Below are positions 91 through 14,130 of a DNA stretch of 58,778 bases, in pieces. Position 1 is the stretch's first letter. Each line of letters begins with the position of its first letter. The notes under the pieces were generated by a model, which was not told the origin of the DNA, ran no database searches, and saw nothing but the letters and a program-made list of their open reading frames with translations. A program made the position numbers and the translations under genes. Origin of the DNA: a virus (Duplodnaviria > Caudoviricetes); IMG/VR virus record IMGVR_UViG_3300028025_003040, positions 1-58,778 of that record; one strand, written 5' to 3'.

Positions 91-258
91 ATGATGACTA
101 AATGGGATACTATCCAAGCAGATGTATCAGATGCCTATGTGTATCTAGATGAAGAAGAGATGTATAACAAGGCTCTAGAAGAGGGCTTAGATTTTGGCTC
201 TGATGAATACGATGAAGATGAACTATCTAAATCACTTACACTAGATTGGGATAACTAA
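91..258 (+). CDS. small acidic hypothetical protein (55 aa)
   Basis: Read by hand; ATG after GAGG, abuts the stop of a truncated upstream ORF; below ORF-track cutoff. Confidence 0.6.
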   Translation: MMTKWDTIQADVSDAYVYLDEEEMYNKALEEGLDFGSDEYDEDELSKSLTLDWDN

Positions 259-260
259 TA

Positions 261-416
261 ATGATTAGCGACGGATTAGAATTACTACTAAGCGAATATG
301 GATTAGAGTTAGATAGTTTCTTAGGGGCTATCTATCTACCATGGCACACTATCGCTATCACCGCCCTACTAATAACCGCTTATAAGATTTATAAGAGAAA
401 GAAGATAACTAAATGA
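261..416 (+). CDS. small putative membrane protein (51 aa)
   Basis: Read by hand; hydrophobic C-terminal half followed by basic tail; tight gene packing. Confidence 0.55.
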   Translation: MISDGLELLLSEYGLELDSFLGAIYLPWHTIAITALLITAYKIYKRKKITK

Positions 417-523
417 ATAGACTACTAACTACTATCGTGCAACTAGCCTTAGCAGTACCCGCCTACTATTGTGTGCGCTACATGATCGCAGACATGAAAG
501 AGATGTGGCGAGAAACACACTAG
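413..523 (+). CDS. small putative membrane protein (36 aa)
   Basis: ATGA overlap with previous ORF; hydrophobic N-terminus. Confidence 0.5.
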   Translation: MNRLLTTIVQLALAVPAYYCVRYMIADMKEMWRETH

Positions 524-570
524 GATAACGGCGTGTCGCCTTGACAAAGGCGGTGGCTGCCCCTAATCTT

Positions 571-619
571 TTGCGGGGTCGGGCGTGTCGTTACGTGATT
601 GTTATAAATTACCCTGGAT
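571..619 (+). repeat. tripartite element copy 1 (TTGNGGG-N13-TTACG-N15/16-CCCTGRAA)
   Basis: TTGCGGG 571, TTACG 591, CCCTGGAT 612; 571-595 is identical to 1902-1926. Confidence 0.85.
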
Positions 620-660
620 TTTACGGCGTGTCGATTTGACAGACAAATCGGACATTTTGG

Positions 661-676
661 TGTGATGTGATTCACA
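661..676. promoter_or_regulatory. CRP-family binding site
   Basis: TGTGA-TGTGAT-TCACA, exact TGTGA-N6-TCACA. Confidence 0.65.
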
Positions 677-724
677 TGACTTGAGCGTCTCATATCGTGG
701 AATTACTGGCTAGTAGGTAGAAAA

Positions 725-747
725 TTGTCGGTGGCTTAGGCTATAAT
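725..747 (+). promoter_or_regulatory. RecA-NDp/PafBC-type promoter
   Basis: TTGTCGGTG-N8-TATAAT upstream of ORF 777. Confidence 0.8.
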
Positions 748-776
748 AGCGGTATAACGAAAGGAAGTGGCTAACA

Positions 777-977
777 ATGGCTAACTTATACACAATAGAA
801 AACTTGCTAATCGGCAAGACTTACAACTCAAAAACTTTGCGTGGAGAAATTATCTCAGCAGAAAAACACCCGAAGGCAATTTGGTATGGAGAAAATACCG
901 AAGCCTATTTGGTAGAAATCAACGCTGGAACTTTCCGCAATAAATTCCGCACAATAGCGGTGAAGGTTGGTGAGTAA
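777..977 (+). CDS. hypothetical protein
   Basis: ORF track; SD AACGAAAGGAA at 756. Confidence 0.8.
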   Translation: MANLYTIENLLIGKTYNSKTLRGEIISAEKHPKAIWYGENTEAYLVEINAGTFRNKFRTIAVKVGE

Positions 978-979
978 TA

Positions 980-1102
980 ATGGGATACATTGAAATTTTT
1001 AGAGTAAATGAAGAAGGTGCTGGCTGGGTAGATTTATCCGAAGCCACACCCGAAGAAATCTTAGATTTAGAAATCGGACTATTTCAGGAAGGTGCTATCT
1101 AA
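980..1102 (+). CDS. small hypothetical protein (40 aa)
   Basis: Read by hand; packed between neighbours. Confidence 0.55.
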   Translation: MGYIEIFRVNEEGAGWVDLSEATPEEILDLEIGLFQEGAI

Positions 1103-1164
1103 TGAATTTAGAAGAATTTAAAAAAAGCGTTATCGCTCAGCGTGAAGCAAGCAAGGCGCAGGCC

Positions 1165-1187
1165 TTGTCGGTGCTATCTGCTACAAT
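1165..1187 (+). promoter_or_regulatory. RecA-NDp/PafBC-type promoter
   Basis: TTGTCGGTG-N8-TACAAT. Confidence 0.75.
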
Positions 1188-1219
1188 TACAACTCAAACA
1201 AACGAAGGGGAAAACCTAA

Positions 1220-1384
1220 ATGGCTAAAGTAAAAGAATACATAGAAATTATCGCAGCGAATTGCGATGAATGCGGTGGCGCAGGATTTTTATTCTGGGGC
1301 AACGAAAAAAACTTTGATGTAGAGCCTTGCGCTTGCGTAGATGAAATTGCAGATGAACTAACAGTAGATTGGGTAAATGACTAA
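1220..1384 (+). CDS. small Zn-finger-like protein (54 aa)
   Basis: Read by hand: CDECGGAG...CAC; SD AACGAAGGGG. Confidence 0.65.
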   Translation: MAKVKEYIEIIAANCDECGGAGFLFWGNEKNFDVEPCACVDEIADELTVDWVND

Positions 1385-1587
1385 TGTATAAACTAACTAT
1401 TGCTTATGACGGAAATGCGCCACTAATAACTGAAACTTATTCAGACGCATTAACCGCCGTTCATTCTTTTGATAAATGCTCAGACTTTGGCGACGCTAAA
1501 GAATACGCAACTTATAATTTGTCAGAGCCTAATGGTAAAATGCACACTAAGAACTTCTACCGAAATGGAAAGGTATCACAAAAATGA
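1384..1587 (+). CDS. hypothetical protein
   Basis: ORF track; TAATG coupling. Confidence 0.75.
   Translation: MYKLTIAYDGNAPLITETYSDALTAVHSFDKCSDFGDAKEYATYNLSEPNGKMHTKNFYRNGKVSQK
1519..1541 (+). promoter_or_regulatory. RecA-NDp/PafBC-type promoter (intragenic)
   Basis: TTGTCAGAG-N8-TAAAAT. Confidence 0.6.
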
Positions 1588-1775
1588 TGACACGAAAAGA
1601 TTATATCGCAACCGCAGAAATTCTAAACTATGTTAGCAATAAAACGCACCCCGCTGTTTTTTCTAAAATGGTAAATGATTTTGCGGAAATGTTTGCAAAA
1701 GATAATGAGCGATTTGATGTAAAAAGATTTCACGAAGCGAGTGGGTACAATGTTCCTAACTTCTCTTCAAGATAA
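1584..1775 (+). CDS. hypothetical protein
   Basis: ORF track; ATGA coupling. Confidence 0.75.
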   Translation: MMTRKDYIATAEILNYVSNKTHPAVFSKMVNDFAEMFAKDNERFDVKRFHEASGYNVPNFSSR

Positions 1776-1881
1776 AGTAAAACGCATTCAGGAATTGCGT
1801 CGCAGTAATGCGGCGCAACCTGTTCGCAATAAAAAAAAATACACACGCAAGATCAAACATAAAAATAAACTTGACAATTAG
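1750..1881 (+). CDS. small basic protein (43 aa)
   Basis: Read by hand: MFLTSLQDKVKRIQELRRSNAAQPVRNKKKYTRKIKHKNKLDN. Confidence 0.5.
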   Translation: MFLTSLQDKVKRIQELRRSNAAQPVRNKKKYTRKIKHKNKLDN

Positions 1882-1901
1882 CGCAGCTGGCCCGCAATAC
1901 G

Positions 1902-1950
1902 TTGCGGGGTCGGGCGTGTCGTTACGGGTGTGATCAAAAACACCCTGGAA
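1902..1950 (+). repeat. tripartite element copy 2
   Basis: TTGCGGG 1902, TTACG 1922, CCCTGGAA 1943. Confidence 0.85.
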
Positions 1951-1971
1951 ATTTTGGGCGTGTTGCAAAAA

Positions 1972-1994
1972 ATGTCAGTGGCCTGTGGTATTAT
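1972..1994 (+). promoter_or_regulatory. RecA-NDp/PafBC-type promoter
   Basis: ATGTCAGTG-N8-TATTAT. Confidence 0.75.
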
Positions 1995-2023
1995 TCCATT
2001 ATCAACAAACGAAAGGTCAACTC

Positions 2024-2179
2024 ATGAACGATATCAACTCATGCTACTGTACTAACTACTCTATCTGCACAATTTGTGCACGAGGCTATTCTAGCGAAGG
2101 AATGGCCGTGTATGATCGTGATCTAGCGCAAGACTGGGCCATGTCAAGAATGGCCGATGCAGAAATGGGGGATTTATAA
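2024..2179 (+). CDS. small Cys-rich hypothetical protein
   Basis: Track ORF 1985 re-started at the ATG after SD AACGAAAGG (2008). Confidence 0.65.
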   Translation: MNDINSCYCTNYSICTICARGYSSEGMAVYDRDLAQDWAMSRMADAEMGDL

Positions 2180-2201
2180 TGTCAGACCGTCCTGTTATAA
2201 T
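2179..2201 (+). promoter_or_regulatory. RecA-NDp/PafBC-type promoter
   Basis: ATGTCAGAC-N8-TATAAT; overlaps a 34-aa CxxC..CxxC ORF at 2179-2283. Confidence 0.7.
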
Positions 2202-2282
2202 AAACTGTTCCATATGCGATACGCCTACCGAGGGCCTATGGTTTAGTATTGGCGATGTGATAACCTGTGAGGAGTGTTGGTA

Positions 2283-3002
2283 ATGAAATTAAAACGTTCT
2301 AACGATAGAAAGGTGGCTAACCTTGTCACAAAAAATGGAAAGCAAGCAGCAATTGCAAACACGTTCGGATTACCCGCAGGAAAAGACTTTTCATGTCCTG
2401 GTGCTACGTCTATCTGTGAGACTGTTTGCTACGCTGGGAAACTTGAAAAACTATTCAAGGGAGTAAAGACTAATCTCCTGCACAATTGGGAATTACTACG
2501 CAATGCAGATATGGATAGCATGCTGCTATTGCTTGATGAAATGATTGTTGAATTCGTCAATGATTGCAATAAGAAAGACGCTCCTAAGTTATTCCGTATC
2601 CACTGGGACGGAGATTTCTTCAATGATACTTATACATATGCCTGGAAGACTGTTATCTCTAATCATCCCGATGTTCAATTTTGGGTTTATACACGTGTAA
2701 AGTCTGCAGCGCTTATTCTTAAGGATGTTACTAATCTTTCACTGTACTATTCCACCGACGATGAGAATAAGGAAATTGGCCACGAGTTAAAGAAGAATTC
2801 TGGTATCCGCCTTGCTTATCTAGGAAAGACATTCGCCTTAACCGAAAGCACAATGAAAGAGTTAACGGGGAGGCCTGGCGCTAAGTGTCCTGAAAATATG
2901 AAATCTATTCCACTAATTAGCAATGCAGGCTCCGCATGCGTATCATGCGGCTTATGTGTCTACGGTAAAGCAGACATTCGATTTAGCGCAACTAAAAAAT
3001 AA
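2283..3002 (+). CDS. phage gp88-like protein (radical-SAM-related fold)
   Basis: CPGATSICETVCYA Cys cluster, RIHWDGDF and WVYTR motifs, C-terminal CxxCxxC. Confidence 0.7.
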   Translation: MKLKRSNDRKVANLVTKNGKQAAIANTFGLPAGKDFSCPGATSICETVCYAGKLEKLFKGVKTNLLHNWELLRNADMDSMLLLLDEMIVEFVNDCNKKDAPKLFRIHWDGDFFNDTYTYAWKTVISNHPDVQFWVYTRVKSAALILKDVTNLSLYYSTDDENKEIGHELKKNSGIRLAYLGKTFALTESTMKELTGRPGAKCPENMKSIPLISNAGSACVSCGLCVYGKADIRFSATKK

Positions 3003-3011
3003 GGAGACAAA

Positions 3012-3146
3012 ATGCAAAATCCATTCTATACAATGCCCCTTGGTTACATGAATGCATTAATAGCTAGCGTGACTGGCGATGAAGAATCTTCTAAGCTGGC
3101 TAAAGAATATTTAGCAGATGTTGATCCCGACACTTGGTCCGATTAG
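3012..3146 (+). CDS. small hypothetical protein (44 aa)
   Basis: Read by hand; AAGGAG SD. Confidence 0.55.
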   Translation: MQNPFYTMPLGYMNALIASVTGDEESSKLAKEYLADVDPDTWSD

Positions 3147-3175
3147 CTTGACAAACTAGATCAAAGCCCGCAACG

Positions 3176-3223
3176 TTGCGGGGTTATCCACAGTTTTACG
3201 AGAGTTATCCACAACCCCTGAAA
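3176..3223 (+). repeat. tripartite element copy 3, both spacers filled by DnaA boxes
   Basis: TTGCGGG 3176, TTACG 3196, CCCTGAAA 3216; TTATCCACA at 3184 and 3205. Confidence 0.85.
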
Positions 3224-3224
3224 A

Positions 3225-3240
3225 TGTGAGGTTAATCACA
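3225..3240. promoter_or_regulatory. CRP-family binding site
   Basis: TGTGA-GGTTAA-TCACA. Confidence 0.65.
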
Positions 3241-3272
3241 AAAGCTGCGACACGCCGAGAATGGATTAGGTA

Positions 3273-3295
3273 ATGTCGGTGGCTTAGTGTAAAAT
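3273..3295 (+). promoter_or_regulatory. RecA-NDp/PafBC-type promoter
   Basis: ATGTCGGTG-N8-TAAAAT. Confidence 0.75.
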
Positions 3296-3324
3296 ACCAT
3301 TATCAACCAAACGAAAGGCAACAA

Positions 3325-3531
3325 ATGAAAATCATCAGCCACTCTCTAAACTTCGTTACTGAAATTGACGAAACAAATCCAACTGCACAACGCTTACTTG
3401 CGTTACCTGAAAAGGAACAAATCCTTATGCTAGAAGGAATGTTAAAGTCTATCTTGCTTCCTAAGATTACTCCAGTTATCGACGAAGTAAATGAAGGTGG
3501 CTCTTGGGCTATTCTAAAGGTGGTGAAGTAA
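3325..3531 (+). CDS. hypothetical protein
   Basis: ORF track; SD AACGAAAGG at 3310. Confidence 0.8.
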   Translation: MKIISHSLNFVTEIDETNPTAQRLLALPEKEQILMLEGMLKSILLPKITPVIDEVNEGGSWAILKVVK

Positions 3532-3806
3532 TGTTATCAACTGCAACTGCGTTGCTAGACGCAACTAAAGACTCTATGTTCGATGAGGATATCATGGGGC
3601 TTGCGGGTGAACTACACACTCGCAGAAATGAACTTAGCGATGAAATTTTTGCTAAGTACCTATTTATGTATTCATCTGCCCTATCTGCTAAAGTAGCCGA
3701 TAGCATAACTAAGGTATTGCTAACTGAGCAAGAAATGTCAGACCTATGCGCTACAATAGACGAAATGGAAAACCTATCCGAAACTATCCTAGAGGAGAAC
3801 GAGTAA
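3531..3806 (+). CDS. hypothetical protein
   Basis: Track ORF 3504 re-started at TAATG overlap; contains ATGTCAGAC-N8-TACAAT promoter at 3735-3757. Confidence 0.75.
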   Translation: MLSTATALLDATKDSMFDEDIMGLAGELHTRRNELSDEIFAKYLFMYSSALSAKVADSITKVLLTEQEMSDLCATIDEMENLSETILEENE

Positions 3807-4072
3807 TGGGATTAAACACAGCAATAGACTTGGCAGAGAGTTTTGACCTAGACCAATCTATTTTAATTCATCTACAAAGTAATCACTATCCACCCGTACC
3901 CGCATCAATGGTACAACCATGTATCGATGCTATCGATGCCTACTACGATGAGGACTATGATAAATTGATCAAACTGCCTGAGCCAGTATTGTGGAAAGGT
4001 AGAGACGAAGCACCCGCTTCCGCTATCATAGAGGCTCATCACCTAGACGCTTGGCTTCCTGAGTCTTACTGA
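3806..4072 (+). CDS. hypothetical protein
   Basis: Track ORF 3746 re-started at TAATG overlap with GAGGAG SD. Confidence 0.75.
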   Translation: MGLNTAIDLAESFDLDQSILIHLQSNHYPPVPASMVQPCIDAIDAYYDEDYDKLIKLPEPVLWKGRDEAPASAIIEAHHLDAWLPESY

Positions 4073-4118
4073 CGGGTAAGGGGGGTGTGGTACAAATCAC
4101 ACCCCCATAAACTACTAA

Positions 4119-4141
4119 TTGTCGGTGGTATCCGCTATAAT
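4119..4141 (+). promoter_or_regulatory. RecA-NDp/PafBC-type promoter
   Basis: TTGTCGGTG-N8-TATAAT; preceded by inverted repeat 4081-4106 enclosing TGTGG-N6-TCACA. Confidence 0.8.
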
Positions 4142-4169
4142 ACTACCAACACCAAACGAAAGGAAACAA

Positions 4170-4316
4170 ATGCTAGAAATCGGACAGACCTTCACAACAA
4201 CACAGACAGGTATCACAGGTATTATCAAAGCCGTTGATAATCACCCAAGCGGTGTAAATCGTGTGCTACTAGATGTCAATGGCACAGAACGCTGGACAAG
4301 CGTATCTGCTGAATAA
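4170..4316 (+). CDS. small hypothetical protein
   Basis: SD AACGAAAGGAAA at 4155. Confidence 0.7.
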   Translation: MLEIGQTFTTTQTGITGIIKAVDNHPSGVNRVLLDVNGTERWTSVSAE

Positions 4317-4331
4317 TTCCTAATCGGGAAA

Positions 4332-4361
4332 TGTCCTGAGCATGACAACTAAAACTGCTCA
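4332..4361 (+). ncRNA. H-type pseudoknot motif, copy 1
   Basis: TGTC-CTGAGCAT-GACA-actaaaac-TGCTCA. Confidence 0.6.
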
Positions 4362-4388
4362 ACCCACAAACCCAACGAAAGGAATACC

Positions 4389-4805
4389 ATGTCAAGACAA
4401 ATCACAGTAAAGGTAGCAACAGCAAAAGTAATCAAGGCACTAGAGGCTCGTCTAGCAACGCTAGAAAAAGATTACTCATCACAAGAAGCAAACGAAGCCA
4501 AGTATCAAAAAGCCCGTGAAAAGTGGCAGAAAGAAATTGGTAAATGGGCTATTGAGAACTTCTCAAAGGCTGAAAATATCAGAACAAATTATCGTCAATG
4601 GAACAACACTCTTAATGTTGATTTTGACATCATCACAAAGGAAAGCAATTTCCCTACTGAACCTGAAAAAGACTACGAGCAAATCCATCAGCACACTTAT
4701 CGTGAGATGAAAGAGGACATCACAAATGCCCTAACAATTCTCAAAATGACAGATGAGGAAACAGTAAATGCTTCCACAATGAAGCAGATTGCTAAGTATC
4801 TCTAA
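4389..4805 (+). CDS. hypothetical coiled-coil protein
   Basis: ORF track; SD CAACGAAAGGAA at 4373. Confidence 0.85.
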   Translation: MSRQITVKVATAKVIKALEARLATLEKDYSSQEANEAKYQKAREKWQKEIGKWAIENFSKAENIRTNYRQWNNTLNVDFDIITKESNFPTEPEKDYEQIHQHTYREMKEDITNALTILKMTDEETVNASTMKQIAKYL

Positions 4806-4878
4806 CTGATGGCAGGGGGCTAGACAAAATCTAGCCCCCAATGCTACAATAGTTATCCCTACTAACAAAGGAAACAAA

Positions 4879-5103
4879 ATGCGTAATCGCTTTAGAATTG
4901 AAATCTATGACGCAAACAAAGCAAATGATTTAACAATGTACTCAGAGCAAGGCGTAGACAAAGAGTATCTAACTGAATTAGTATTCTCTAACCTCCGCCG
5001 TTTTAATGGTAAAGTTCGTGCCTATGTTTATGATAGCGTAAAGAAAAAGAAAATCACCGCAATGTTTCTTAATGAAGAAACAGTTGCTTCCTTAAATAAA
5101 TAA
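4879..5103 (+). CDS. hypothetical protein
   Basis: ORF track; SD AAAGGAAA; upstream hairpin 4816-4839. Confidence 0.75.
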   Translation: MRNRFRIEIYDANKANDLTMYSEQGVDKEYLTELVFSNLRRFNGKVRAYVYDSVKKKKITAMFLNEETVASLNK

Positions 5104-5108
5104 GAGCT

Positions 5109-5135
5109 TGGGGCGGGATCAAACTCGCCCCATTT
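5109..5135 (+). terminator. putative intrinsic terminator
   Basis: TGGGGCGGG-atcaaa-CTCGCCCCA-TTT right after the stop codon. Confidence 0.55.
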
Positions 5136-5166
5136 CCCAAATGTCCGTTTTGTCTGCCCCCATTCG

Positions 5167-5214
5167 TTGAGGGGTTTTCCACATGTTTACGACAAGCTGT
5201 GGATAACCCTGAAA
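5167..5214 (+). repeat. tripartite element copy 4 with DnaA boxes in both spacers
   Basis: TTGAGGG 5167, TTACG 5187, CCCTGAAA 5207; TTTTCCACA 5175 and TGTGGATAA 5198. Confidence 0.85.
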
Positions 5215-5217
5215 ATT

Positions 5218-5233
5218 TGTGAGATTGATCACA
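5218..5233. promoter_or_regulatory. CRP-family binding site
   Basis: TGTGA-GATTGA-TCACA. Confidence 0.65.
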
Positions 5234-5270
5234 TGACGCAATTCGGACAAATGACTCCTTAGACTAGTAA

Positions 5271-5293
5271 ATGTCAGACCCCTATGTTATACT
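5271..5293 (+). promoter_or_regulatory. RecA-NDp/PafBC-type promoter
   Basis: ATGTCAGAC-N8-TATACT. Confidence 0.75.
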
Positions 5294-5320
5294 AATCAAA
5301 CAATCAACCGAAAGGAAATC

Positions 5321-6325
5321 ATGGCTCACAATCTCGAAACCGAAAACGGCGAAGTTGCATTTGCTCTTCGTGGCGCACCTGCTTGGCATAACCTTGCCAA
5401 TCGTATCTTCAATCAAGATGAAGAAGTTACAACACAAACAATGCTTGATGAAGCAAAACTATCCAACTGGAATGTTCGCTTATCTCCATTGACCGACCAC
5501 ATTTCAGAATCTTGGAATGATGTATCAAATGCATCTCTTGTCATTCGTGACAACCCATTCAATAAGGGAATCGATGTTCTTGCAACTGTTGGCAAACGTT
5601 ACAAGCCTGTGCAGAATGAAGAACTATTTGCATTCGCTGATGCAATTCACGATGCCAATGCTGATTGCCGTTGGGAATCTGCGGGTTCTCTTAAGAAAGG
5701 CAAAGTTGTATTTGGTACTGTAGATATTCCTCGCACAATGGTTCTTGACCCACAAGGCGCCAATGACCAAACAAAGTTATATCTAATCGTATGGACATCA
5801 CACGATGGTTCTGTTGCCGTTCAAGCAGCGGTTACACCTGTTCGTGTTGTATGTCAAAACACGCTAAACCTTGCAATGAAGAATGCTAAGCAATCTTTCA
5901 AGATTCGCCACACGCAATCTGTTGAAGGTCGCATTCAAGTTGCTCGTGAAACTCTTGGGCTTGCTCTTGGTTATTTCGATGAATTCGAAGTTCAAGCAAA
6001 GGCTCTTTATTCACAAGCAATTACCGATGCTGAATTCTCTAAGTTAATTCAGACAATCTATCCTAAGCCTGAAAAAGATGCTAAGGGTGCATTGAAGAAG
6101 TGGGAAAATAAAGTTGTTCTAATTGACGACCTTTATCATAACTCACCAACCAATGCGACAATCAAGGGAACAAAGTGGGGTGCATTCAATGCACTAACTG
6201 AGCGCCTTGATTACTACCGCTCTGGTCGTGGTAATTCAGAATCCCTAATGGCGGGTGCAAGTGGTTTTGACCCAATCTTAACCGCAGAAAAAAATAAGTT
6301 GTATCGAATGGTTGCAACTTTCTAA
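5321..6325 (+). CDS. DUF932-family (TIGR03299-like) phage/plasmid protein
   Basis: MAHNLE..PAWH, YKPVQN, ESAGSL, SHDGS, TPVRVVCQNTL, GTKWGAFNALTE motifs. Confidence 0.85.
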   Translation: MAHNLETENGEVAFALRGAPAWHNLANRIFNQDEEVTTQTMLDEAKLSNWNVRLSPLTDHISESWNDVSNASLVIRDNPFNKGIDVLATVGKRYKPVQNEELFAFADAIHDANADCRWESAGSLKKGKVVFGTVDIPRTMVLDPQGANDQTKLYLIVWTSHDGSVAVQAAVTPVRVVCQNTLNLAMKNAKQSFKIRHTQSVEGRIQVARETLGLALGYFDEFEVQAKALYSQAITDAEFSKLIQTIYPKPEKDAKGALKKWENKVVLIDDLYHNSPTNATIKGTKWGAFNALTERLDYYRSGRGNSESLMAGASGFDPILTAEKNKLYRMVATF

Positions 6326-6331
6326 ATAATA

Positions 6332-6360
6332 AAATCCTGAGCAAGATTTAAAACTGCTCA
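6332..6360 (+). ncRNA. H-type pseudoknot motif, copy 2
   Basis: AAATC-CTGAGCAA-GATTT-aaaac-TGCTCA, 6 nt before tRNA-Asp. Confidence 0.6.
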
Positions 6361-6366
6361 CCATTT

Positions 6367-6443
6367 GGTCCATTAGCTCAGTTGGTTAGAGCGCTACCCT
6401 GTCACGGTAGAGGTCGACGGTTCAAGTCCGTTATGGATCGCCA
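6367..6443 (+). tRNA. tRNA-Asp(GTC)
   Basis: Cloverleaf; anticodon arm CTACC-CTGTCAC-GGTAG; TTCAAGT T-loop; encoded CCA. Confidence 0.93.
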
Positions 6444-6473
6444 GGTGTATCAAAATGTGAGACGCCCCCAAGA

Positions 6474-6522
6474 TTGAAGGCAGGATTTTTGTGTTACGAA
6501 TCACAAAAAAATTACCCTGGAA
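6474..6522 (+). repeat. tripartite element copy 5 with overlapping CRP-like site
   Basis: TTGAAGG 6474, TTACG 6494, CCCTGGAA 6515; TGTGT-TACGAA-TCACA 6490-6505. Confidence 0.8.
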
Positions 6523-6533
6523 AGCTATTGTAA

Positions 6534-6556
6534 ATGTCAGTGGCACCCACTATAAT
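6534..6556 (+). promoter_or_regulatory. RecA-NDp/PafBC-type promoter
   Basis: ATGTCAGTG-N8-TATAAT; second copy GTGTCAGAC-N8-TAGAAT at 6679-6701. Confidence 0.75.
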
Positions 6557-6562
6557 AGCGAC

Positions 6563-7207
6563 ATGTTCAAATCATATTGGTATGTGTGTACATCTTGTGA
6601 TGCATCTATTGAGATCGTATCTAAGGGAATACATTTTCAGGACCCGTCCTGTAATTGTTCAGACCCAGCAGTTGTATGGTGTCAGACCAGTGTGGTAGAA
6701 TCATCCACTAACCAAACGAAAGAGGAACAAATGGAAGAAACAACATATGGAGCAACAGTAACACCTGCAGTAACCGTGCCTGACACATACAATCCTAATC
6801 TATTGGTAACCTATAAAGTTATCCACGGATATTCAGATGCAGAATACGCAACTGATAAGGTCACATCAATTGAATGGGACTTGCACAATGCACGTCAAGC
6901 ACAGAAGCGTAATGCAGTTTTTCAAGATAAGATTGATGCAGTCAAGCAAATTATCTGCGAAGCATATGCAGATTCACAAGACCAAGACACATTGCGTGAA
7001 ATTGCTGAAGCGCTTGATATTGAACTTGTCAAGGAAGTTGAGTGGACTGCATCTATCGAAGTTAGCGGAACATATTCATACAACATTCTTGAGAATGATT
7101 ACGAGTTAGACCTCGAGTCAGATATTACAGATGCAATCTTTGCTGATTCACATCACGGAAACATTGAAATTAATGACCAAGAAGTATGTAATGTTAGGGA
7201 AGCCTAA
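6563..7207 (+). CDS. hypothetical protein with N-terminal Zn-ribbon; alternative start at 6731
   Basis: Track ORF 6491; ATG 6563 lies 6 nt after a -10 box; ATG 6731 has its own SD and promoter. Confidence 0.7.
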   Translation: MFKSYWYVCTSCDASIEIVSKGIHFQDPSCNCSDPAVVWCQTSVVESSTNQTKEEQMEETTYGATVTPAVTVPDTYNPNLLVTYKVIHGYSDAEYATDKVTSIEWDLHNARQAQKRNAVFQDKIDAVKQIICEAYADSQDQDTLREIAEALDIELVKEVEWTASIEVSGTYSYNILENDYELDLESDITDAIFADSHHGNIEINDQEVCNVREA

Positions 7208-7422
7208 TGTATTTTGAACTAAAGGCACCAAACCAGTTGGCCCTGCAAGGGGCCTTCTGGGAAGCCGAAGTAGTTGGTCTTGACCCTGAATTAAATTCAC
7301 AACCATTGACATTCAATATCGGAACTGGTAGCATAGAGAAGGTGAGTCGCATTCGTGATAAGTATAACTTAGTAGAGTCATACACTAGCGATTACGAGCC
7401 AACAGGATATACAAGGAGATAA
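7207..7422 (+). CDS. hypothetical protein
   Basis: ORF track; TAATG coupling. Confidence 0.75.
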   Translation: MYFELKAPNQLALQGAFWEAEVVGLDPELNSQPLTFNIGTGSIEKVSRIRDKYNLVESYTSDYEPTGYTRR

Positions 7423-7423
7423 A

Positions 7424-7570
7424 ATGTCAGACTATAAAGATGGTTTCACAGATGGCGTTAAGTGGGCTAAGGAAGACTTAGCAGAGCGCCTACGTGAAAT
7501 TGATATTATGGATATCGATTCGTGGATGTTAGATAGACTAGCAGATATGATAGAGGGCGGAGATCTCTAA
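7424..7570 (+). CDS. small hypothetical protein (48 aa)
   Basis: Read by hand; AAGGAG SD. Confidence 0.65.
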   Translation: MSDYKDGFTDGVKWAKEDLAERLREIDIMDIDSWMLDRLADMIEGGDL

Positions 7571-7773
7571 TGGAAGATTTAACTAGATGGATCGGCTGCG
7601 ATCAATGCGGGACAGCTCAAGCAATGTATCTAATTAAACTAGTAGATGGTGAGCTGTACTTTTGTCACCACCACTATAATAAAAACAAAGAGGCCCTTGA
7701 CAAGGTTTCATTTGAAATGATAGAATTGAATAAAACAGAAGAAGTACCTCAACTAGAAACGGCGGAAATATAA
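7570..7773 (+). CDS. small Zn-binding protein
   Basis: CDQC...FCHHH motif. Confidence 0.7.
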   Translation: MEDLTRWIGCDQCGTAQAMYLIKLVDGELYFCHHHYNKNKEALDKVSFEMIELNKTEEVPQLETAEI

Positions 7774-8180
7774 TGGGAGATAGAGCAAACTTTGGATTCG
7801 TCCAACCTAATGGAAATACAATTGTGCTATACGGTCACTGGGCTGGATACAACATGCTTGGTAAGTTAGCGGATGCTGTAATCGCTGCTCGTCCAAGGTG
7901 GACCGATACATCATATGCAACACGTATTGCTATCAGTCAATTAATTGGAGACCAATGGAATATGGAAACAGGTTGGGGCCTGCAGGTAAATGAGCGCTCT
8001 GACAATGAACATAAGATTGCAATCGTAGACTTTGAACAGCAAACGTTTTCTCTTCACGAGGAAGACGACTTTAGAAATCAAGACAACAAAGTTCGTGGAA
8101 TGAAGAATGAAGCAATCTTTACCATGGACCTGTCAGCATTCTGCGAGAAGTATGCATTGGAAAATATCTTAGTCAACTAA
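7773..8180 (+). CDS. hypothetical phage protein
   Basis: ORF track; MGDRAN..LYGHW N-terminus. Confidence 0.8.
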   Translation: MGDRANFGFVQPNGNTIVLYGHWAGYNMLGKLADAVIAARPRWTDTSYATRIAISQLIGDQWNMETGWGLQVNERSDNEHKIAIVDFEQQTFSLHEEDDFRNQDNKVRGMKNEAIFTMDLSAFCEKYALENILVN

Positions 8181-8196
8181 TATGATATAATATTGA

Positions 8197-8330
8197 TAGG
8201 CCTGGTGCCTATTCATATGAGTGGTGCATCTACTCAAGATGCTAAGTAAGGCAGGTTTTTCCTTTCGTTGAGGTCCTAGCAGCCGCTCCTTTAAACCCCC
8301 GTGTATTACAGTCCACGGGGGTTTATTCTT
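8197..8330 (+). ncRNA. candidate sRNA with anti-Shine-Dalgarno loop
   Basis: TGaTATAAT at 8183-8191; internal stems; TTTCCTTTCGTTG at 8258-8270; terminator AAACCCCCGTG..CACGGGGGTTT at 8293-8324; no credible ORF. Confidence 0.6.
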
Positions 8331-8342
8331 GCCCGCAAAAGC

Positions 8343-8391
8343 TTGAGGGTAAAATATTCTTCTTACGGAAGTCAAATAAATTTCCCAGGAA
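8343..8391 (+). repeat. tripartite element copy 6
   Basis: TTGAGGG 8343, TTACG 8363, CCCAGGAA 8384. Confidence 0.8.
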
Positions 8392-8442
8392 TTTCAGCAT
8401 ATGAGATCATGTGGTGTAGAACACACCCATATAGTATATACA

Positions 8443-8465
8443 ATGTCAGTGGTCTAATATATAAT
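8443..8465 (+). promoter_or_regulatory. RecA-NDp/PafBC-type promoter
   Basis: ATGTCAGTG-N8-TATAAT. Confidence 0.75.
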
Positions 8466-8492
8466 AAGAACATATCAGCGAAAGGATATAAT

Positions 8493-9269
8493 ATGCCAAA
8501 CTGGGTGTATAACACATTAACTATACAAGGACCAAAAGAACAAGTAGATTCAATTAAAGATAGATTAAATGCTCCATTTACATTAGCACAGGAGACATTT
8601 GGTATGGGTGATATTTCTTCTATGGGATTTCCTACTAAGATTATTCAGGTATCTTATTCTAATCCCGTTTTTTCTTTCAACAATATCCATTCATATAAGG
8701 ATGACGGAATTACTGATGAGGAATATGCCTGCCAACCTAATCGTGGTGATATAGATATTCAGAATGACCCTGATTGGTTCCGCAAATCTGTTGAGTTTGC
8801 TAAGACTCAGAAGGATTGGTACTCTTGGAATAATTCTAACTGGGGAACTAAATGGGATGTAGCCGTCCGTGACGGAGATGAATATCCAAATACAGAACTA
8901 ATTGAATATAAGTCAGAAGGTGAAGACAACTGGGTTATATATAAATATGAGACTGCATGGTCACCTGCTGTAACTATCTTAACTAAACTAAGTAATCTTG
9001 TTCCTAACTGTGTTCTTACTTTAGAATTTGAGGAAGAGACAGGTTGGGGTGGTGAATATGAAATTATCAAGGGTGAAGTAAGAGAACTAATGGAATGGGA
9101 GAATCGTTGTTATGCTTGCCAATCTTTTGATACATTGAGTTACTGTGAAGATGAATGTGGAGAGTTCTGCTCAGAATGTAATCAAGGCTCTTGGCAGGAT
9201 GAAGAGGCAATGGCAAAATGTCAGACCCACATGGTACTATTGGAATCTACAGAAAAGGCGGAAGTATGA
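8493..9269 (+). CDS. DUF1281/YubB-like ferredoxin-fold protein with Cys-rich tail
   Basis: MPNWVYNTL start, WYSWN..NWGTKWD, ETAWSP motifs; internal promoter at 9218-9240. Confidence 0.75.
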   Translation: MPNWVYNTLTIQGPKEQVDSIKDRLNAPFTLAQETFGMGDISSMGFPTKIIQVSYSNPVFSFNNIHSYKDDGITDEEYACQPNRGDIDIQNDPDWFRKSVEFAKTQKDWYSWNNSNWGTKWDVAVRDGDEYPNTELIEYKSEGEDNWVIYKYETAWSPAVTILTKLSNLVPNCVLTLEFEEETGWGGEYEIIKGEVRELMEWENRCYACQSFDTLSYCEDECGEFCSECNQGSWQDEEAMAKCQTHMVLLESTEKAEV

Positions 9270-9496
9270 GTTTCTTAGAAAACGAAAACCAAATGGTGAT
9301 TGACGCTGAACTGCAAGAAATTGCAGAACAGTTATTAGATGACTGGATGAATTCTAATTTAGATGAAGGTCAGTTATATGCAGATTGGAGAATTGCAGAC
9401 ATGTCATCTAGCAATTATCTCAAAGGTAGGTTTAATCAACATTATGATTTAACACCTGATAACCAATACTATCTAGAATTTGATGAGGAGAAATAA
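9266..9496 (+). CDS. hypothetical acidic protein
   Basis: ATGA coupling. Confidence 0.7.
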   Translation: MSFLENENQMVIDAELQEIAEQLLDDWMNSNLDEGQLYADWRIADMSSSNYLKGRFNQHYDLTPDNQYYLEFDEEK

Positions 9497-9660
9497 TGTT
9501 AGGGTATACGCAGAAAGATTTGGCAGATATGACCTATGGGGTCTACCAAGCTGACCTGTTGGTCAATGCTGATGAAAATCCTGCAATTCATAATTATTTA
9601 GTTATGGCTCATGATTTCTTACAGGGCTTGTGGGCAGAAGGGTATTTCGATCATGTCTAA
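9496..9660 (+). CDS. small hypothetical protein (54 aa)
   Basis: Read by hand; GAGGAG SD, TAATG coupling. Confidence 0.65.
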   Translation: MLGYTQKDLADMTYGVYQADLLVNADENPAIHNYLVMAHDFLQGLWAEGYFDHV

Positions 9661-9838
9661 ATCATCTTACTTCCTAGAATATATGAAAGTTCATTTAATT
9701 AGTCTTATACAAGATTTAGATAAAGATTTGAATGTTGAATCTAAGATTAATATCCAAGGACAAATTATGGCAACAGAACATTTGTTGTCAGTGGCTACTG
9801 ATATAATGAATTCTTCTAACGAAAGGGTATATGAATGA
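9653..9838 (+). CDS. hypothetical protein
   Basis: Track ORF 9611 re-started; contains TTGTCAGTG-N8-TATAAT at 9785-9807. Confidence 0.65.
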   Translation: MSKSSYFLEYMKVHLISLIQDLDKDLNVESKINIQGQIMATEHLLSVATDIMNSSNERVYE

Positions 9839-10098
9839 GACATACTGAACTTCCCGTCCATTTACAACGAATGGTAGACGCAGAGGTAACGGGGCTCGAC
9901 ATCATGCATGGAGAACTAAAAAACCTCATGCTTCTTGGAGAAAAGGAATTAGAGCGGACCTTGATAGCGGAACAAGAATCAGGAGAAGCAATGGATTCTA
10001 TGGAACGTACTTATGCAGAAGGATATCTAGACGCATTAGTATCTTTATATAAACTAACATATGATTTATCATTTGCCATTGGGGGAAAAAATGAGTAG
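9835..10098 (+). CDS. hypothetical protein
   Basis: ORF track; SD AACGAAAGGG. Confidence 0.75.
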   Translation: MRHTELPVHLQRMVDAEVTGLDIMHGELKNLMLLGEKELERTLIAEQESGEAMDSMERTYAEGYLDALVSLYKLTYDLSFAIGGKNE

Positions 10099-10321
10099 TT
10101 ATGAGCCAAGCTTGGAAATCCTGGAAGTTAATTACGGCTGTTCTCCAGGAGGTGTAGATACATTTGAGGTCTATGATAGATCTGAGATTGAGCCTGTACA
10201 AATACCAATATATGAGACAGAGTCCTTGACCGAAGCGGTCCTATTCTGTTACAATTTGGGAAAGGACTTTATTGTTCGAACATTAGCGGAATGGGAAGAA
10301 CGGGAGTTAATGAATGCCTAA
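10091..10321 (+). CDS. hypothetical protein
   Basis: Track ORF 10061 re-started at overlap. Confidence 0.7.
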   Translation: MSSYEPSLEILEVNYGCSPGGVDTFEVYDRSEIEPVQIPIYETESLTEAVLFCYNLGKDFIVRTLAEWEERELMNA

Positions 10322-10493
10322 ATACAGAGTCTTTGGAGTTCAAGAAAAGAATTACTATGCAATCGTTGAGGCAACTGACGAATATGAAGCATGGGACATA
10401 ATCAACGGGGACAAAGTCTTCCAATGGTTTGCAATACCTACAGATAAAACAATCGAACCTACTGAAGTATATGGGGAGTATGATGAAGCCTGA
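10314..10493 (+). CDS. small hypothetical protein (59 aa)
   Basis: Read by hand: MPKYRVFGVQEKNYYAIVEATDEYEAW... Confidence 0.65.
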   Translation: MPKYRVFGVQEKNYYAIVEATDEYEAWDIINGDKVFQWFAIPTDKTIEPTEVYGEYDEA

Positions 10494-10812
10494 TGACAAA
10501 GATAAACTAAATGAATGCTTAAAGATTCTAGATTCCACCGACCTTGGCTTGTCCCTGGTTTGGCTATGGACCTGGTCTACAATTAATAACATCTTTGAGG
10601 ATGAGACCTACAAGCAGAACTGCACCATAGATGAGATGTGGGACCACCTCTGTGAGGCTGTGGAGGCAGGCCAGGGCTTCTCTCTAGAGTACGGGGCAGA
10701 ACAACATCAAGACGACGTACTTGAATGGATGATGAATCGTGAATACATTGTAGACACAATGTTTGAGGAAGACGAGGAGGACGAAGATGAGGATGAAGAT
10801 AAAGATGAGTGA
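10480..10812 (+). CDS. hypothetical protein with acidic tail
   Basis: Track ORF 10429 re-started at GGGGAG SD. Confidence 0.75.
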   Translation: MMKPDDKDKLNECLKILDSTDLGLSLVWLWTWSTINNIFEDETYKQNCTIDEMWDHLCEAVEAGQGFSLEYGAEQHQDDVLEWMMNREYIVDTMFEEDEEDEDEDEDKDE

Positions 10813-10945
10813 TCAATATGTCGACTCTGTCCTTGCAGAGGCCCAACGGCTTCTGTGGGGCGGATCTGAGACAGAGAACATTGCTGCACACAACCTGATA
10901 GCAAAGCTTATTAAAGACAGATTACCTGATGAAGAAGTGGAGTAG
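10805..10945 (+). CDS. small hypothetical protein
   Basis: Track ORF 10763 re-started at overlap. Confidence 0.6.
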   Translation: MSDQYVDSVLAEAQRLLWGGSETENIAAHNLIAKLIKDRLPDEEVE

Positions 10946-11153
10946 ATTCTACAAAACTATAGATAAGCAGATCTATGTTTATTTAAAGAATGAGGATCCT
11001 GACACATATAAGGTACATGCATATGGGATGTCTAGATACTATAAAGGCGAGGACGCAATTCAGCAGCTTATTAAATTAGTTAGAGATTTAGGCGATTGTG
11101 ATCTAAATGAATCTTTAATTAAAGAAGCAAAGAAAGAATTCGTGGGGGCGTAA
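10929..11153 (+). CDS. hypothetical protein
   Basis: ORF track. Confidence 0.6.
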   Translation: MKKWSRFYKTIDKQIYVYLKNEDPDTYKVHAYGMSRYYKGEDAIQQLIKLVRDLGDCDLNESLIKEAKKEFVGA

Positions 11154-11189
11154 AAAGCTTGTTACGAAACAATTAAATATCGGCTGGAA
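11142..11189 (+). repeat. tripartite element copy 7 (degenerate)
   Basis: GTGGGGG 11142, TTACG 11162, GGCTGGAA 11182. Confidence 0.6.
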
Positions 11190-11192
11190 CTA

Positions 11193-11221
11193 TTGACCAA
11201 ATCGGCAATAGTTGATATACT
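11193..11221 (+). promoter_or_regulatory. housekeeping sigma promoter
   Basis: TTGACC-N17-TATACT. Confidence 0.65.
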
Positions 11222-11255
11222 AATATAAAACAATATCTCGAAAGGATATACTACT

Positions 11256-11402
11256 ATGACAACAAAGCGTGAATATCTAAAGTCACAAGGAATTACAGTT
11301 GGTGCCCGTGGTCGTTTCTCAGGAGCTGCAAAGGTAGCTATTGATGAGGCCCTGAAGAAGGGTGTTAGCTTCACAGCTGAGAAGCCTGCAGCAAAGAAGT
11401 AA
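11256..11402 (+). CDS. Lsr2-like stand-alone DNA-binding domain (48 aa)
   Basis: Read by hand: MTTKREYLKSQGITVGARGRFSGAAKVAIDEAL..., like the Lsr2 C-terminal RxW..G..V..RGR AT-hook; SD CGAAAGGA. Confidence 0.65.
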   Translation: MTTKREYLKSQGITVGARGRFSGAAKVAIDEALKKGVSFTAEKPAAKK

Positions 11403-11484
11403 CACATATAGATCGGAGGGGCTGGTTGACGAGAGTTGCCAGCCCTTCCCCAATTTGGTACAATACTATAACGAAAGGCGGACT

Positions 11485-11853
11485 ATGAGTAAAACACCAG
11501 AAACAAAAGTAGCAGAACAACTAATCAATCTAACAGAAAGCCATTGGTTCAATCCAGCAACGCTGGGTAGTTATATGGCAGACCAACCGCTATATACTAT
11601 TGACCGAGTTATGGAAATGCTTGCTCAAACAGTTCATTATCTAAATAAGAGATATGGACAAGAGCAAATCAATGGTCGCACATCAGAAGGTCTATTGCTT
11701 GCTAATAAATTAGACATGTTAATTAAATCTATTAAACATACTGACAATCTTCAACTGCCGAAGGCACCTTCTAAGATAATTGGCGGGATAAAGAAAATGG
11801 ATCCCTCCCTCAGATACTCTCATATCAGAGAGACCAATAGCCAAGTACAATAG
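11485..11853 (+). CDS. hypothetical protein
   Basis: SD AACGAAAGG at 11470; last gene of the + arm. Confidence 0.75.
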   Translation: MSKTPETKVAEQLINLTESHWFNPATLGSYMADQPLYTIDRVMEMLAQTVHYLNKRYGQEQINGRTSEGLLLANKLDMLIKSIKHTDNLQLPKAPSKIIGGIKKMDPSLRYSHIRETNSQVQ

Positions 11854-12384
11854 AATAAACATATAGCCCAAATTATCCACAGTCTTATCCACAGGCTGTG
11901 GATTTTTTGTGGACAAAATTGGGGGCAGCTTTTTCCTTTTACGAGAGATCTAAAAATATCCTGGAATATCTGAGAGAAATGTATATATATCTTATTAAAC
12001 ATTATATATATGTCGACAAATCTATATAGAATTTAATAGAATTGTGGGCAAATTTTCCCGTTTACGGGGGCATATTAAATACCCCTGAAGCCTACAAATG
12101 TCGACAAAATGCTTGACAAATTTGCACGGATGTGCATCTATTGACATAAATGGAGCAAAATGGTATTAAGTGGGTAATTGTGGAGGGTGTTCAAATACAC
12201 ATATGTATATATGTCGATATATTGATAGTGTGCTGGAGGGAATTAATAGTATTTACTTTGGTAGATATCCTGTAGATATGGCTCTAAAAAGGCTTATAAG
12301 AGGATTTGAGGGGGGTCTGAGGGGAAGGGGATATAGGAGTTAGATGCTATTTTGGATGCTATCTCAGCAATTTATAGAGGCATG
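11854..12384. other. non-coding arm junction with DnaA-box cluster (origin-like or terminal-repeat end)
   Basis: TTATCCACA 11873 and 11885, TGTGGATTT 11897, TGTGGACAA 11908; tripartite copies 8 (11919-11966) and 9 (12042-12090); AT-rich tract about 11980-12040. Confidence 0.55.
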
Positions 12385-12585
12385 TTAATCATGCATTATG
12401 GCTGAGTTCATCCAGATATCTCCATCATTGTTGATCGAGTACTTTAGAATCATTGTCTTATTACACTTTAAGCATTTAGGTAAGAAGTCTAACTCTCTAC
12501 TTAGCTCTATATTCATCTCTGATCTATCTGACATACATAGGAAGTTATAGGTGAATATGGGATCTATCTCGCCTTCCCGCCCCAT
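12385..12585 (-). CDS. small Zn-ribbon protein
   Basis: YNFLC...PKCLKC..M pattern; true start may be internal. Confidence 0.5.
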   Translation of the reverse strand: MGREGEIDPIFTYNFLCMSDRSEMNIELSRELDFLPKCLKCNKTMILKYSINNDGDIWMNSAIMHD

Positions 12586-14093: not shown

Positions 14094-14130
14094 ATACCTA
14101 TAATACAATTTATGTGAAAGAATGTCAATG

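Follow-up and report, generated by a model that had tools for sequence, protein, structure and literature searches.

Repeated regulatory elements are already known from the early regions of phages. The cluster A mycobacteriophages, which are temperate, carry stoperators, asymmetric single sites of 13 bp that lie genome-wide in the path of transcription. In T4-type phages, small and variable early genes are flanked by PeSL cassettes, in which a terminator-like stem-loop is combined with an early promoter (PMC2839356, PMC4122927). The left terminal repeat of phage T5 contains, at its inner end, DnaA boxes paired 3 nt apart among many repeats, and these boxes and repeats have been proposed to stop the entry of the DNA, a proposal that is itself untested (10.1101/866236). 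In the halovirus HF2, intergenic repeats carry promoters (PMC8707807). In this study we describe an element of another form, called E here, which occurs nine times in IMG/VR virus record IMGVR_UViG_3300028025_003040, a Caudoviricetes record of 58,778 nt that was analysed whole and is referred to below as the window. E is about 49 bp long and consists of three blocks held at fixed spacing, and this form is new. As in the original prediction, which was made from the sequence alone and did not recognise the motif, no description of E was found in the literature searched, the coverage of which was incomplete and did not extend to supplements. We read E as a phage-specific, protein-bound, polar upstream regulatory site of early promoters, and we assign this reading a probability of about 0.5.

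All nine copies of E lie on the + strand between positions 571 and 12090, and none occurs elsewhere in the 58.8 kb window.

571..619, + strand: E1, TTGCGGG-N13-TTACG-N16-CCCTGGAT, with GCCC at 559
1902..1950, + strand: E2, full consensus, with GCCC at 1890 and a promoter downstream at 1966-1994
3176..3223, + strand: E3, full consensus, with GCCC at 3166
5167..5214, + strand: E4, full consensus, with GCCC at 5156, upstream of the DUF932 gene (5321-6325)
6474..6522, + strand: E5, block 1 TTGAAGG, with GCCC at 6464, just 3' of the tRNA-Asp gene (6367-6443)
8343..8391, + strand: E6, block 3 CCCAGGAA, with GCCC at 8331 and a promoter at 8437-8465
11142..11189, + strand: E7, block 1 GTGGGGG, overlapping the last codons of the open reading frame (ORF) at 10929-11153, block 3 GGCTGGAA
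11919..11966, + strand: E8, a copy in a non-coding zone, block 3 TCCTGGAA, directly after a cluster of DnaA boxes and followed by an AT-rich stretch
12042..12090, + strand: E9, a copy in the same zone, block 3 CCCTGAAG, followed by TTGACA-17-TATTAA at about 12141-12169 and by no supported gene

A strict scan for TTGNGGG-N13-TTACG gave seven matches, all on the + strand (571, 1902, 3176, 5167, 8343, 11919 and 12042), and none in 100 dinucleotide-preserving shuffles. A looser scan anchored on every TTACG, of which there are 41 on the + strand and 24 on the - strand, recovered all nine copies, including those at 6474 and 11142, and left the - strand without any. Its sole further candidate, at 51377, has 4/6 bases of block 1 and no third block. 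A profile hidden Markov model (HMM) built from the nine copies and run over both strands of the window at an E-value of 0.1 or less returned exactly those nine. In 9/9 copies the distance from the start of block 1 to the start of TTACG is exactly 20 nt, the second spacer is 15 nt long in four copies and 16 nt in five, and copies 1-6, but not copies 7-9, have GCCC at 30-32 nt before TTACG. The blocks, TGnGGG, TTACGR and an A-tract followed by CCCTGAAA, are set about two helical turns apart. The original prediction had claimed nine one-strand copies restricted to the + arm, an invariant TTACG 20 bp after the first block, and these distances for the third block and GCCC, and all of this is borne out in the window. 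Its consensus blocks stand as an overall pattern, although letter-for-letter agreement with all three is limited to copies 2, 3 and 4, with block 1 deviating in copies 5 and 7 and block 3 in copies 1, 6, 7, 8 and 9. It had also called the spacers mostly unrelated; the blocks are indeed fixed while the spacers vary, but DnaA boxes and further repeated motifs occur in some of the latter. Copies 1 and 2 are recent duplicates, because an identical 25-mer is common to both.

This geometry is conserved. Among the 281 IMG/VR stretches with a relative of the DUF932 protein, the best 80 (90-97% identity, 1.34 Mb) were used for comparison. The profile HMM found 444 matches on the gene strand and 0 on the other, with at least one in 80/80 loci (mean 5.55), and a loose regular expression found 228 forward and 0 reverse. 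The complete relatives (5/5) contain 21 strict matches, all on one strand and within an early arm of 5-10 kb, against 0 for a reversed-pattern control in the same five genomes. The original prediction had staked itself on the absence of copies from the - arm and from shuffled sequence and on the spacing being kept in relatives, and this is what was found. The 156 distinct 60-nt cores, which fall into 40 sequence clusters, have conserved blocks and variable spacers and yield the consensus gCCCsc-N5-TGnGGG-N13-TTACGR-N10-aAAAa-CCCTGAAaTTT, in which TTACG is replaced in some relatives by TTATG (32), TTAAG (29) or ATACG (12). In L154, a more distant relative with DUF932 segments about 50-60% identical to those of the window (tblastx), the complete form with all three blocks was found again. 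L154 has in addition the two-block core TTACGA-N14-CCCTGAAA twice in tandem, immediately ahead of a promoter.

Beyond these loci, a scan of viral contigs with the strict pattern returned at least 119 stretches, of which 79 loci (L112-L190) were analysed: 74 align to the family of the window, two are distant relatives and three are unrelated single matches. The same pattern in 596 Gb of prokaryote genomes returned only 21 stretches, one of them (L110) a relative of this phage and 20 of them single matches without similarity to the window, where a rough estimate puts the chance expectation at a few tens. Because the pattern is nearly absent from the prokaryote genomes and present in at least 119 viral stretches, the comparison points, if weakly, to a phage-specific factor that may bind E.

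The second line of evidence is the position of E relative to promoters. Six + strand promoters in the arm share the sequence ATGTCAG(T/A)(G/C)(G/C)C right after the -35 hexamer, and each has its -10 exactly 17 nt after that hexamer.

1966-1994, + strand: promoter downstream of E2, -35 at 1966-1971, ATGTCAG from 1972, -10 TATTAT at 1989-1994
2173-2201, + strand: promoter without an E of its own
3267-3295, + strand: promoter downstream of E3
5265-5293, + strand: promoter downstream of E4
6528-6556, + strand: promoter downstream of E5, TTGTAA-17-TATAAT
8437-8465, + strand: promoter downstream of E6

E thus lies upstream of 5/6 of these promoters. In the relatives, an ATGTCAG-type promoter is found at most 112 nt downstream in 103/156 cores and upstream in 2/156, against 8.75% of random windows. 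Almost all of the 51 cores without a detected promoter are non-coding-zone copies at the arm end; for the few others, the promoter was either missed by the regular expression or lies beyond the 111 nt examined, and none of the 51 directly precedes a gene that lacks a promoter of its own. The original prediction that copies 1-7 precede transcription units is supported. As to copies 8 and 9, which it had placed before no gene, there is indeed no supported gene after E9, but promoter-like sites do follow both copies. A generic scan for promoters and terminators, which gave 48 promoter-like sites against 38.9 expected and is for that reason a weak test, was used only for locating sites. The AATGTCAG of the ATGTCAG-type promoters is invariant in 60 distinct aligned upstream sequences, and a box conserved at such a place, inside the spacer of a promoter, hints at an additional factor or at an unusual contact by the polymerase.

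Two layouts of E and promoter can be distinguished. In the short one, 3-5 nt separate block 3 from the -35 hexamer: E5 ends 5 nt before TTGTAA-17-TATAAT (6528-6556), and E7 ends 3 nt before the promoter-like TTGACC-17-TATACT (11193-11221), which lies ahead of the ORF at 11256; the predicted block centres fall near -44, -66 and -86. In the long one, a module of 40-60 nt with CRP-like and CGGACA/GACACGCC boxes is inserted. The distances from TTACG to the -10 cluster at 46, 55-58, 67-68, 77, 88-89, 99-102, 108-111, 118 and 131 nt. In a scan of periods from 6 to 16 bp the best was 10.5 bp, with R=0.66 when one value was taken per cluster (24 clusters), a value that 0/5000 random sets reached, and with R=0.71 (Monte Carlo p=0.08) over 10 distinct architectures. 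This phasing is suggestive and not proven, because the clusters share downstream modules and the promoters were called by regular expression. In its short layout E resembles UP-type elements and phased activator sites such as those of phi29 p4: it lies at about -40 to -90, has an A-tract by the -35 and shows a preference in helical phase. It differs from them in being longer and more specific (three blocks plus GCCC) and in presumably acting also, in the long layout, from about -110. With HF2, E shares the tie of repeated intergenic elements to promoters in a lytic virus, although HF2 is an archaeal virus and its repeats contain the promoter itself.

E does not fold. The minimum free energy of native copies is not significantly lower than that of chimeric halves (-8.17 versus -7.91 kcal/mol, p=0.87), so there is no excess of pairing. 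A stem forced around TTACG gave -1.85 versus -1.21 in the chimeras (p=0.61), and most copies have no stem at all. The z-scores of nine 145-nt regions folded as single-stranded DNA (ssDNA) ranged from +0.13 to -1.93, and a search of window positions 1-13000 against Rfam at an E-value of 1 or less returned only tRNA-Asp. The strong hairpin that some copies do have is an inverted pair of DnaA boxes with a 12-bp stem and disappears in sequences that have the second box in direct orientation. Column-to-column mutual information in the alignment mainly reflected the relatedness of orthologous copies and was dropped as evidence of covariation. The claim of the original prediction that E is a polar element of conserved spacing and not a simple repeat is therefore upheld, and E appears to behave as a double-stranded protein site.

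Under the preferred reading, E would be a double-stranded polar cis-regulatory site within the upstream region of the early promoters in the early arm of about 12 kb, which is probably the counterpart of the long terminal repeat in related Streptomyces phages. One protein or complex would contact the three blocks along one face of the DNA and, once bound, would act on RNA polymerase at the downstream sigma-A-type promoter, either by activation or by later shut-off. The binding of a protein, its phage specificity and the sign of its effect are what we infer here. Other factors may modulate occupancy, since the spacers are free for other sites such as DnaA boxes and GGCGTGTCG. The original prediction had named an activator or RNA polymerase, a replication initiator and an entry or anchoring factor as candidates. 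Because of the promoter association and the helical phasing, a transcription-linked role is favoured, while a role in entry, at the terminal repeat or in replication is retained for copies 8 and 9 in view of the arrays next to paired DnaA boxes at the arm end. Stoperator-like repressor sites were considered as well and rejected. As with stoperators, many asymmetric copies in the same orientation are found in an actinobacteriophage. In contrast to them, E is about 49 bp long, has three blocks, lies upstream of promoters and after terminators in the early arm only, and occurs in a phage in which no integrase was found; the single orientation agrees with such sites and the confinement to the arm upstream of promoters contradicts them.

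Several observations weigh against an upstream regulatory site. Promoter regulation alone does not explain the gene-less arrays of E at the arm end, some of them tandem at 48-49 bp. Off-phase distances of 94-97 nt also occur (17 cores at 94-96, mostly from one cluster, and two at 97). The phasing clusters are non-independent, the promoters called by regular expression have a background of 8.75%, and the most conservative test gives p=0.08. The long layout places TTACG about 100-110 nt upstream of the predicted start, which is far for direct contact. The absence of E from host genomes carries little weight, as the strict pattern captures some of the copies and misses others, and as the representative genomes may not include the host species. 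The transcription starts are predicted, and the sole RNA run (X1, share 0.06) consists of contigs of relatives that cannot show starts, ends or strand. The low depth of this run in E-rich intergenic bins and its contigs across promoters were not used, as DNA carry-over or read-through could explain them.

The search for a protein that might bind E also counts on this side, as a Pfam scan of 30 + arm ORFs gave no DNA-binding domain above cut-off and no binder was found. Two small ORFs were the only DNA-binding candidates noticed, and nothing ties either to E. One, of 48 amino acids (11256-11402, + strand, after E7), is like the DNA-binding domain of Lsr2 alone and has an RGR motif, with a sub-threshold Pfam E-value of 0.023. 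The terminal repeat of Streptomyces phage Jay2Jay carries a full Lsr2-like gene. The other, of 51 amino acids (32141-32296, - strand), has a helix-turn-helix and a sub-threshold match to sigma-70 region 4, is kept in 4/4 genomes searched and may encode a small transcription regulator. Sigma-70 region 2 was found neither in the window nor in three complete relatives, and all region-4 matches fell below the Pfam cut-off. A search for T7-type RNA polymerase gave no match and is uninformative, since no control genome gave a match either.

A fairly unlikely alternative is that E is itself a promoter, with TTACGR as a -35-like hexamer and CTGAAA or GAAATT as a -10-like hexamer 16-19 nt downstream. 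RNA polymerase, diverted to E by a minor sigma factor of the host or by an unrecognised appropriator or sigma factor of the phage, would then make a second temporal class of transcripts of the same early genes. Indeed, the two best-conserved blocks stand in sigma-70-family geometry (TTACGR, 15-16 nt, CCCTGAAA), E has the orientation of the genes and lies upstream of them, and the two-block core is kept in L154, including its tandem pair, and in two tandem sites of Jay2Jay. Some non-coding-zone copies have TTGACA inside the second spacer, and the helix-turn-helix ORF described above, with its sub-threshold region-4-like match, is kept in 4/4 genomes searched. However, no sigma region 2 was found in the window or three complete relatives, neither block is like a sigma-A -10 (TANNNT), and GAAATT is 18-19 nt from TTACGR, at or beyond the limit of 16-18 nt, whereas the generic scan puts promoters downstream of E. 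Downstream of every gene-proximal E there is a separate and better promoter, and none of the genes relies solely on E. In addition, tandem copies 29-49 bp apart could not all be occupied by polymerase, and the helical phasing to the downstream -10 would be unexpected for independent tandem promoters.

It is also possible, though unlikely, that E is a structural signal of a terminal-repeat arm, namely an entry stop or anchor, a packaging mark at the repeat boundary, or a replication start used with host DnaA. In a complete relative, the + arm is a 12-kb island of opposite orientation, the rest being read on the other strand. The nearest isolates of the phage are Streptomyces phages of the Stanwilliamsviridae type with long terminal repeats, whose polymerase is 58% and DUF932 protein about 51% identical; in these, the DUF932 homologue lies within the long terminal repeat and is seen as two places per record. 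The terminal repeat of Jay2Jay, about 11.4 kb long, consists of small genes, each with its own intergenic region, and the + arm is homologous to it in gene content and topology. The part of the window that bears most on this alternative is the end of the arm.

11854..12384: conserved non-coding zone of about 0.5 kb, where the + arm meets the - arm
11873-11881 and 11885-11893: direct DnaA boxes TTATCCACA, 3 nt apart
11897-11905 and 11908-11916: weaker DnaA boxes, inverted

The zone contains, in order, the two direct DnaA boxes, the two inverted ones, E8, an AT-rich stretch with the ATGTCGAC motif, E9 and promoter-like sites, and its layout is the same in the relatives G003 and G005. DnaA boxes paired at a distance of 3 nt among conserved non-coding repeats are present, as in the region proposed to stop the injection of T5 DNA (10.1101/866236). 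Further points of resemblance to the T5 left terminal repeat are an early, first-expressed arm with conserved non-coding repeats, the place of the paired boxes at its inner end (window 11873-11893) and an element order kept among relatives. The T5 system belongs, however, to another phage family and another host phylum, and its repeats are not described as one three-block element before each promoter. E, for its part, occurs also seven times upstream of transcription units, and for the phage of the window both two-step entry and a terminal repeat are suppositions. DnaA boxes also lie inside E3 and E4, and E often forms head-to-tail arrays in relatives. Copies with a 48-49 bp period were observed in L158, L167, L171, L189, L190 and G005 (11124-11197), and in such arrays neighbouring copies adjoin directly, block 3 against block 1.

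In Jay2Jay, the outer end of the terminal repeat has five same-strand YTTTACGA sites in a span of 465 bp, and the rest of the genome has seven. This cluster lies downstream of the last repeat gene, which is the topology of E8 and E9 downstream of the last arm gene. Two of the five sites have the form TTACGA-N14/15-CCCRGA in tandem, yet the strict two-block pattern is no commoner in Jay2Jay than its reversed control (four, being two sites in both repeats, versus three), and the E profile found weak partial matches only, the best with an E-value of 0.017. Only the local cluster of YTTTACGA is clearly non-random there. Two other observations were made near the inner end of this repeat: about eight GGTACATA-like repeats at 10429-10807, before the first repeat-gene promoter, and a GTACGA-N15-CCCGGAAC unit 9 nt before the -35 of that promoter.

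As a cluster of DnaA boxes beside an AT-rich stretch, the arm end has features of a replication start, yet E stands at nine places and the transcription of both arms converges on the zone at 11854-12384, which is unusual for an origin. A structural signal is opposed as well by the 7/9 window copies and 103/156 cores that lie just upstream of promoters over 11 kb. The identity of the arm as a terminal repeat is an assignment by homology, because the end repeats of IMG/VR records show circular assembly only and are no proof of a terminal repeat in this phage, and the DnaA model of T5 has the status of a proposal.

A wider and doubtful proposal unites these roles. E could be the site of a phage protein, either carried in the virion or made first, by which a large group of actinobacteriophages organises its first-entering terminal-repeat arm. 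At each of the early promoters, such a protein would load host RNA polymerase or hold it in place, and the arrays by the paired DnaA boxes would mark an entry pause or the end of the repeat. The upstream-regulatory reading and the boundary or entry reading would be compatible if the whole arm were marked by a single protein. Were this proposal correct, a core of TTTACGA, 14-16 nt and CCCWG would be common to freshwater low-GC actinophages and the Stanwilliamsviridae of Streptomyces, and two-step DNA entry could be approached through a defined sequence in phages other than T5.

It is improbable that E has no factor of its own and is simply a conserved part of a duplicated terminator-promoter cassette that provides homology for gene shuffling, or that it is a recombinase site. 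E does lie between terminator-like hairpins and promoters, the gene content of the arm differs among relatives while the regulatory regions align, copies 1 and 2 are recent duplicates, and E is a 48-49 bp pseudo-palindrome in which block 1 resembles the reverse complement of block 3. Homology tracts, however, would not keep the blocks fixed while the spacers diverge fully over 40 clusters, and in the one swap examined (window 3327-4372 versus G003) the exchange runs from a gene start to before the next ribosome-binding site, with no break at E. Serine and tyrosine recombinases (PF00239, PF00589) were found in 0/4 genomes, the window and three complete relatives, and in 12/14 and 14/14 control genomes. 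As in the PeSL cassettes, repeated composite regulatory sequences surround small variable early genes here. In contrast to these cassettes, E forms a motif of its own ahead of the promoter, in which the spacing is fixed and the spacers vary.

Finally, a function of E as RNA or ssDNA, be it an N4-type hairpin promoter, a Frpo-like promoter, an antiterminator or a processing site, has hardly any chance of being right, since the one-strand polarity, a possible short GCCCsC...GnGGGG stem upstream of copies 1-6, the 12-bp stem of copies with inverted DnaA boxes and the presence of DUF932 genes, which are typical of plasmid leading regions, are outweighed by complementarity no higher than in chimeras, z-scores of -1.93 or above, the lack of an Rfam match to E and the loss of the stem in those orthologous copies whose second DnaA box is direct.

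Should E prove to be an upstream activator site and no more, its kind would be an ordinary one and only its sequence form new. The 281 IMG/VR stretches show that this group of phages is abundant, and almost no regulatory biology is known for the freshwater low-GC Actinobacteria that are its probable hosts. An oriented signal of about 49 bp at every early transcription unit and at the arm end offers an entry point to the timing of host takeover and a way to ask whether the long arm behaves like the first-step-transfer DNA of T5. E may also serve as an annotation marker, by which the early arm and its orientation can be found in fragmentary contigs.

Other short motifs accompany E in the arm.

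661-676 (after E1), 3225-3240 (after E3) and 5218-5233 (directly after E4): CRP-like palindrome TGTGA-N6-TCACA
530-538, 582-590 (first spacer of E1), 625-633, 1913-1921 (first spacer of E2) and 3248-3256 (- strand): GGCGTGTCG motif

The CRP-like palindrome occurs three times in the window against 0.07 expected and is concentrated in the arm, and GGCGTGTCG occurs five times against 0.01 expected, always in the arm. DnaA boxes number nine in the window (1.6 expected), with 6/9 in the arm. E3 has a direct DnaA box TTATCCACA in each spacer (3184-3192 and 3205-3213), and E4 has TTTTCCACA at 5175-5183 and an inverted TTATCCACA at 5198-5206 (- strand). E1 is followed on its 3' side by GGCGTGTCG, a CRP-like palindrome, a promoter-like site at 718-747 and then an ORF at 777, and E6 begins directly 3' of an intrinsic-terminator-like hairpin with its T-run. 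Palindromes of the CRP/GlxR type are kept in relatives; judged by their sequence, they could be sites for a host regulator of the cAMP-receptor type or phage operators. A CGGACA box, like GGCGTGTCG, recurs in early upstream regions, and a GTGTCG...CGGACA pair recurs also in the intergenic regions of the terminal repeat of Jay2Jay (L088). GACAC, which is contained here, may represent the WhiA motif.

The fullest view of such a region comes from the DUF932 gene, where 60 distinct upstream sequences could be aligned and the site orthologous to E4 is kept in them. The chain begins with a terminator-like hairpin, GCCCsC, TGnGGGG, a DnaA box TTATCCACA and TTACGR. It continues with a second DnaA box, mostly inverted and in some sequences direct, followed by CCCTGAAA, the CRP-like TGTGA-N6-TCACA and AATTCGGACAAAT, and it ends in the promoter TAGACA-ATGTCAG...-TGTTATAMT and a CGAAAGG ribosome-binding site.

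As for the phage itself, the window is the whole of its IMG/VR record, which is estimated to be 54% complete; with complete relatives of 110-120 kb, it represents about half of an uncultured phage of about 115 kb that carries whiB. It encodes a DnaE-type polymerase, a DnaB-like helicase, a primase, RecA, tail proteins and six tRNAs, and a search for near-identity among isolated phages gave no match.

2274-3002: early-arm gene, GP88
5321-6325: early-arm gene, DUF932
7570-7773: early-arm gene, DUF7455
8301-9269: early-arm gene, DUF1281_C (Api92-like)
20596-20769, - strand: WhiB-family gene
6367-6443, 14130-14275, 27332-27479 and 27829-27903: six tRNA genes (Asp, Gln, Leu, Gly, Arg, Met)

Pfam and PHROGs assigned no family to the remaining arm ORFs tested, and a sequence search of the PDB with DUF932 and GP88 returned nothing usable. 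Both GP88 and DUF932 are found also in the terminal repeats of Streptomyces phages, and tRNA-Asp lies within the early arm, directly before E5. The WhiB-family gene, found in 4/4 genomes searched and, among 14 control genomes, matched in Corynebacterium only, points to an actinobacterial host. A GC content of 35-43% and freshwater-looking relatives make a low-GC freshwater actinobacterium the probable host, and a freshwater metatranscriptome contains relatives as well. L110, a 23-kb contig with collinear tblastx matches to the arm, has been binned into a 'Bacteroidia bacterium' metagenome-assembled genome, a placement that is probably a binning artefact and not evidence of the host. In L154, at about 12380-12600 (- strand), an ATG lies 6-7 nt after a -10-like hexamer; an ATG so near the -10 suggests a leaderless mRNA there, whereas the genes of the window are led by CGAAAGG.

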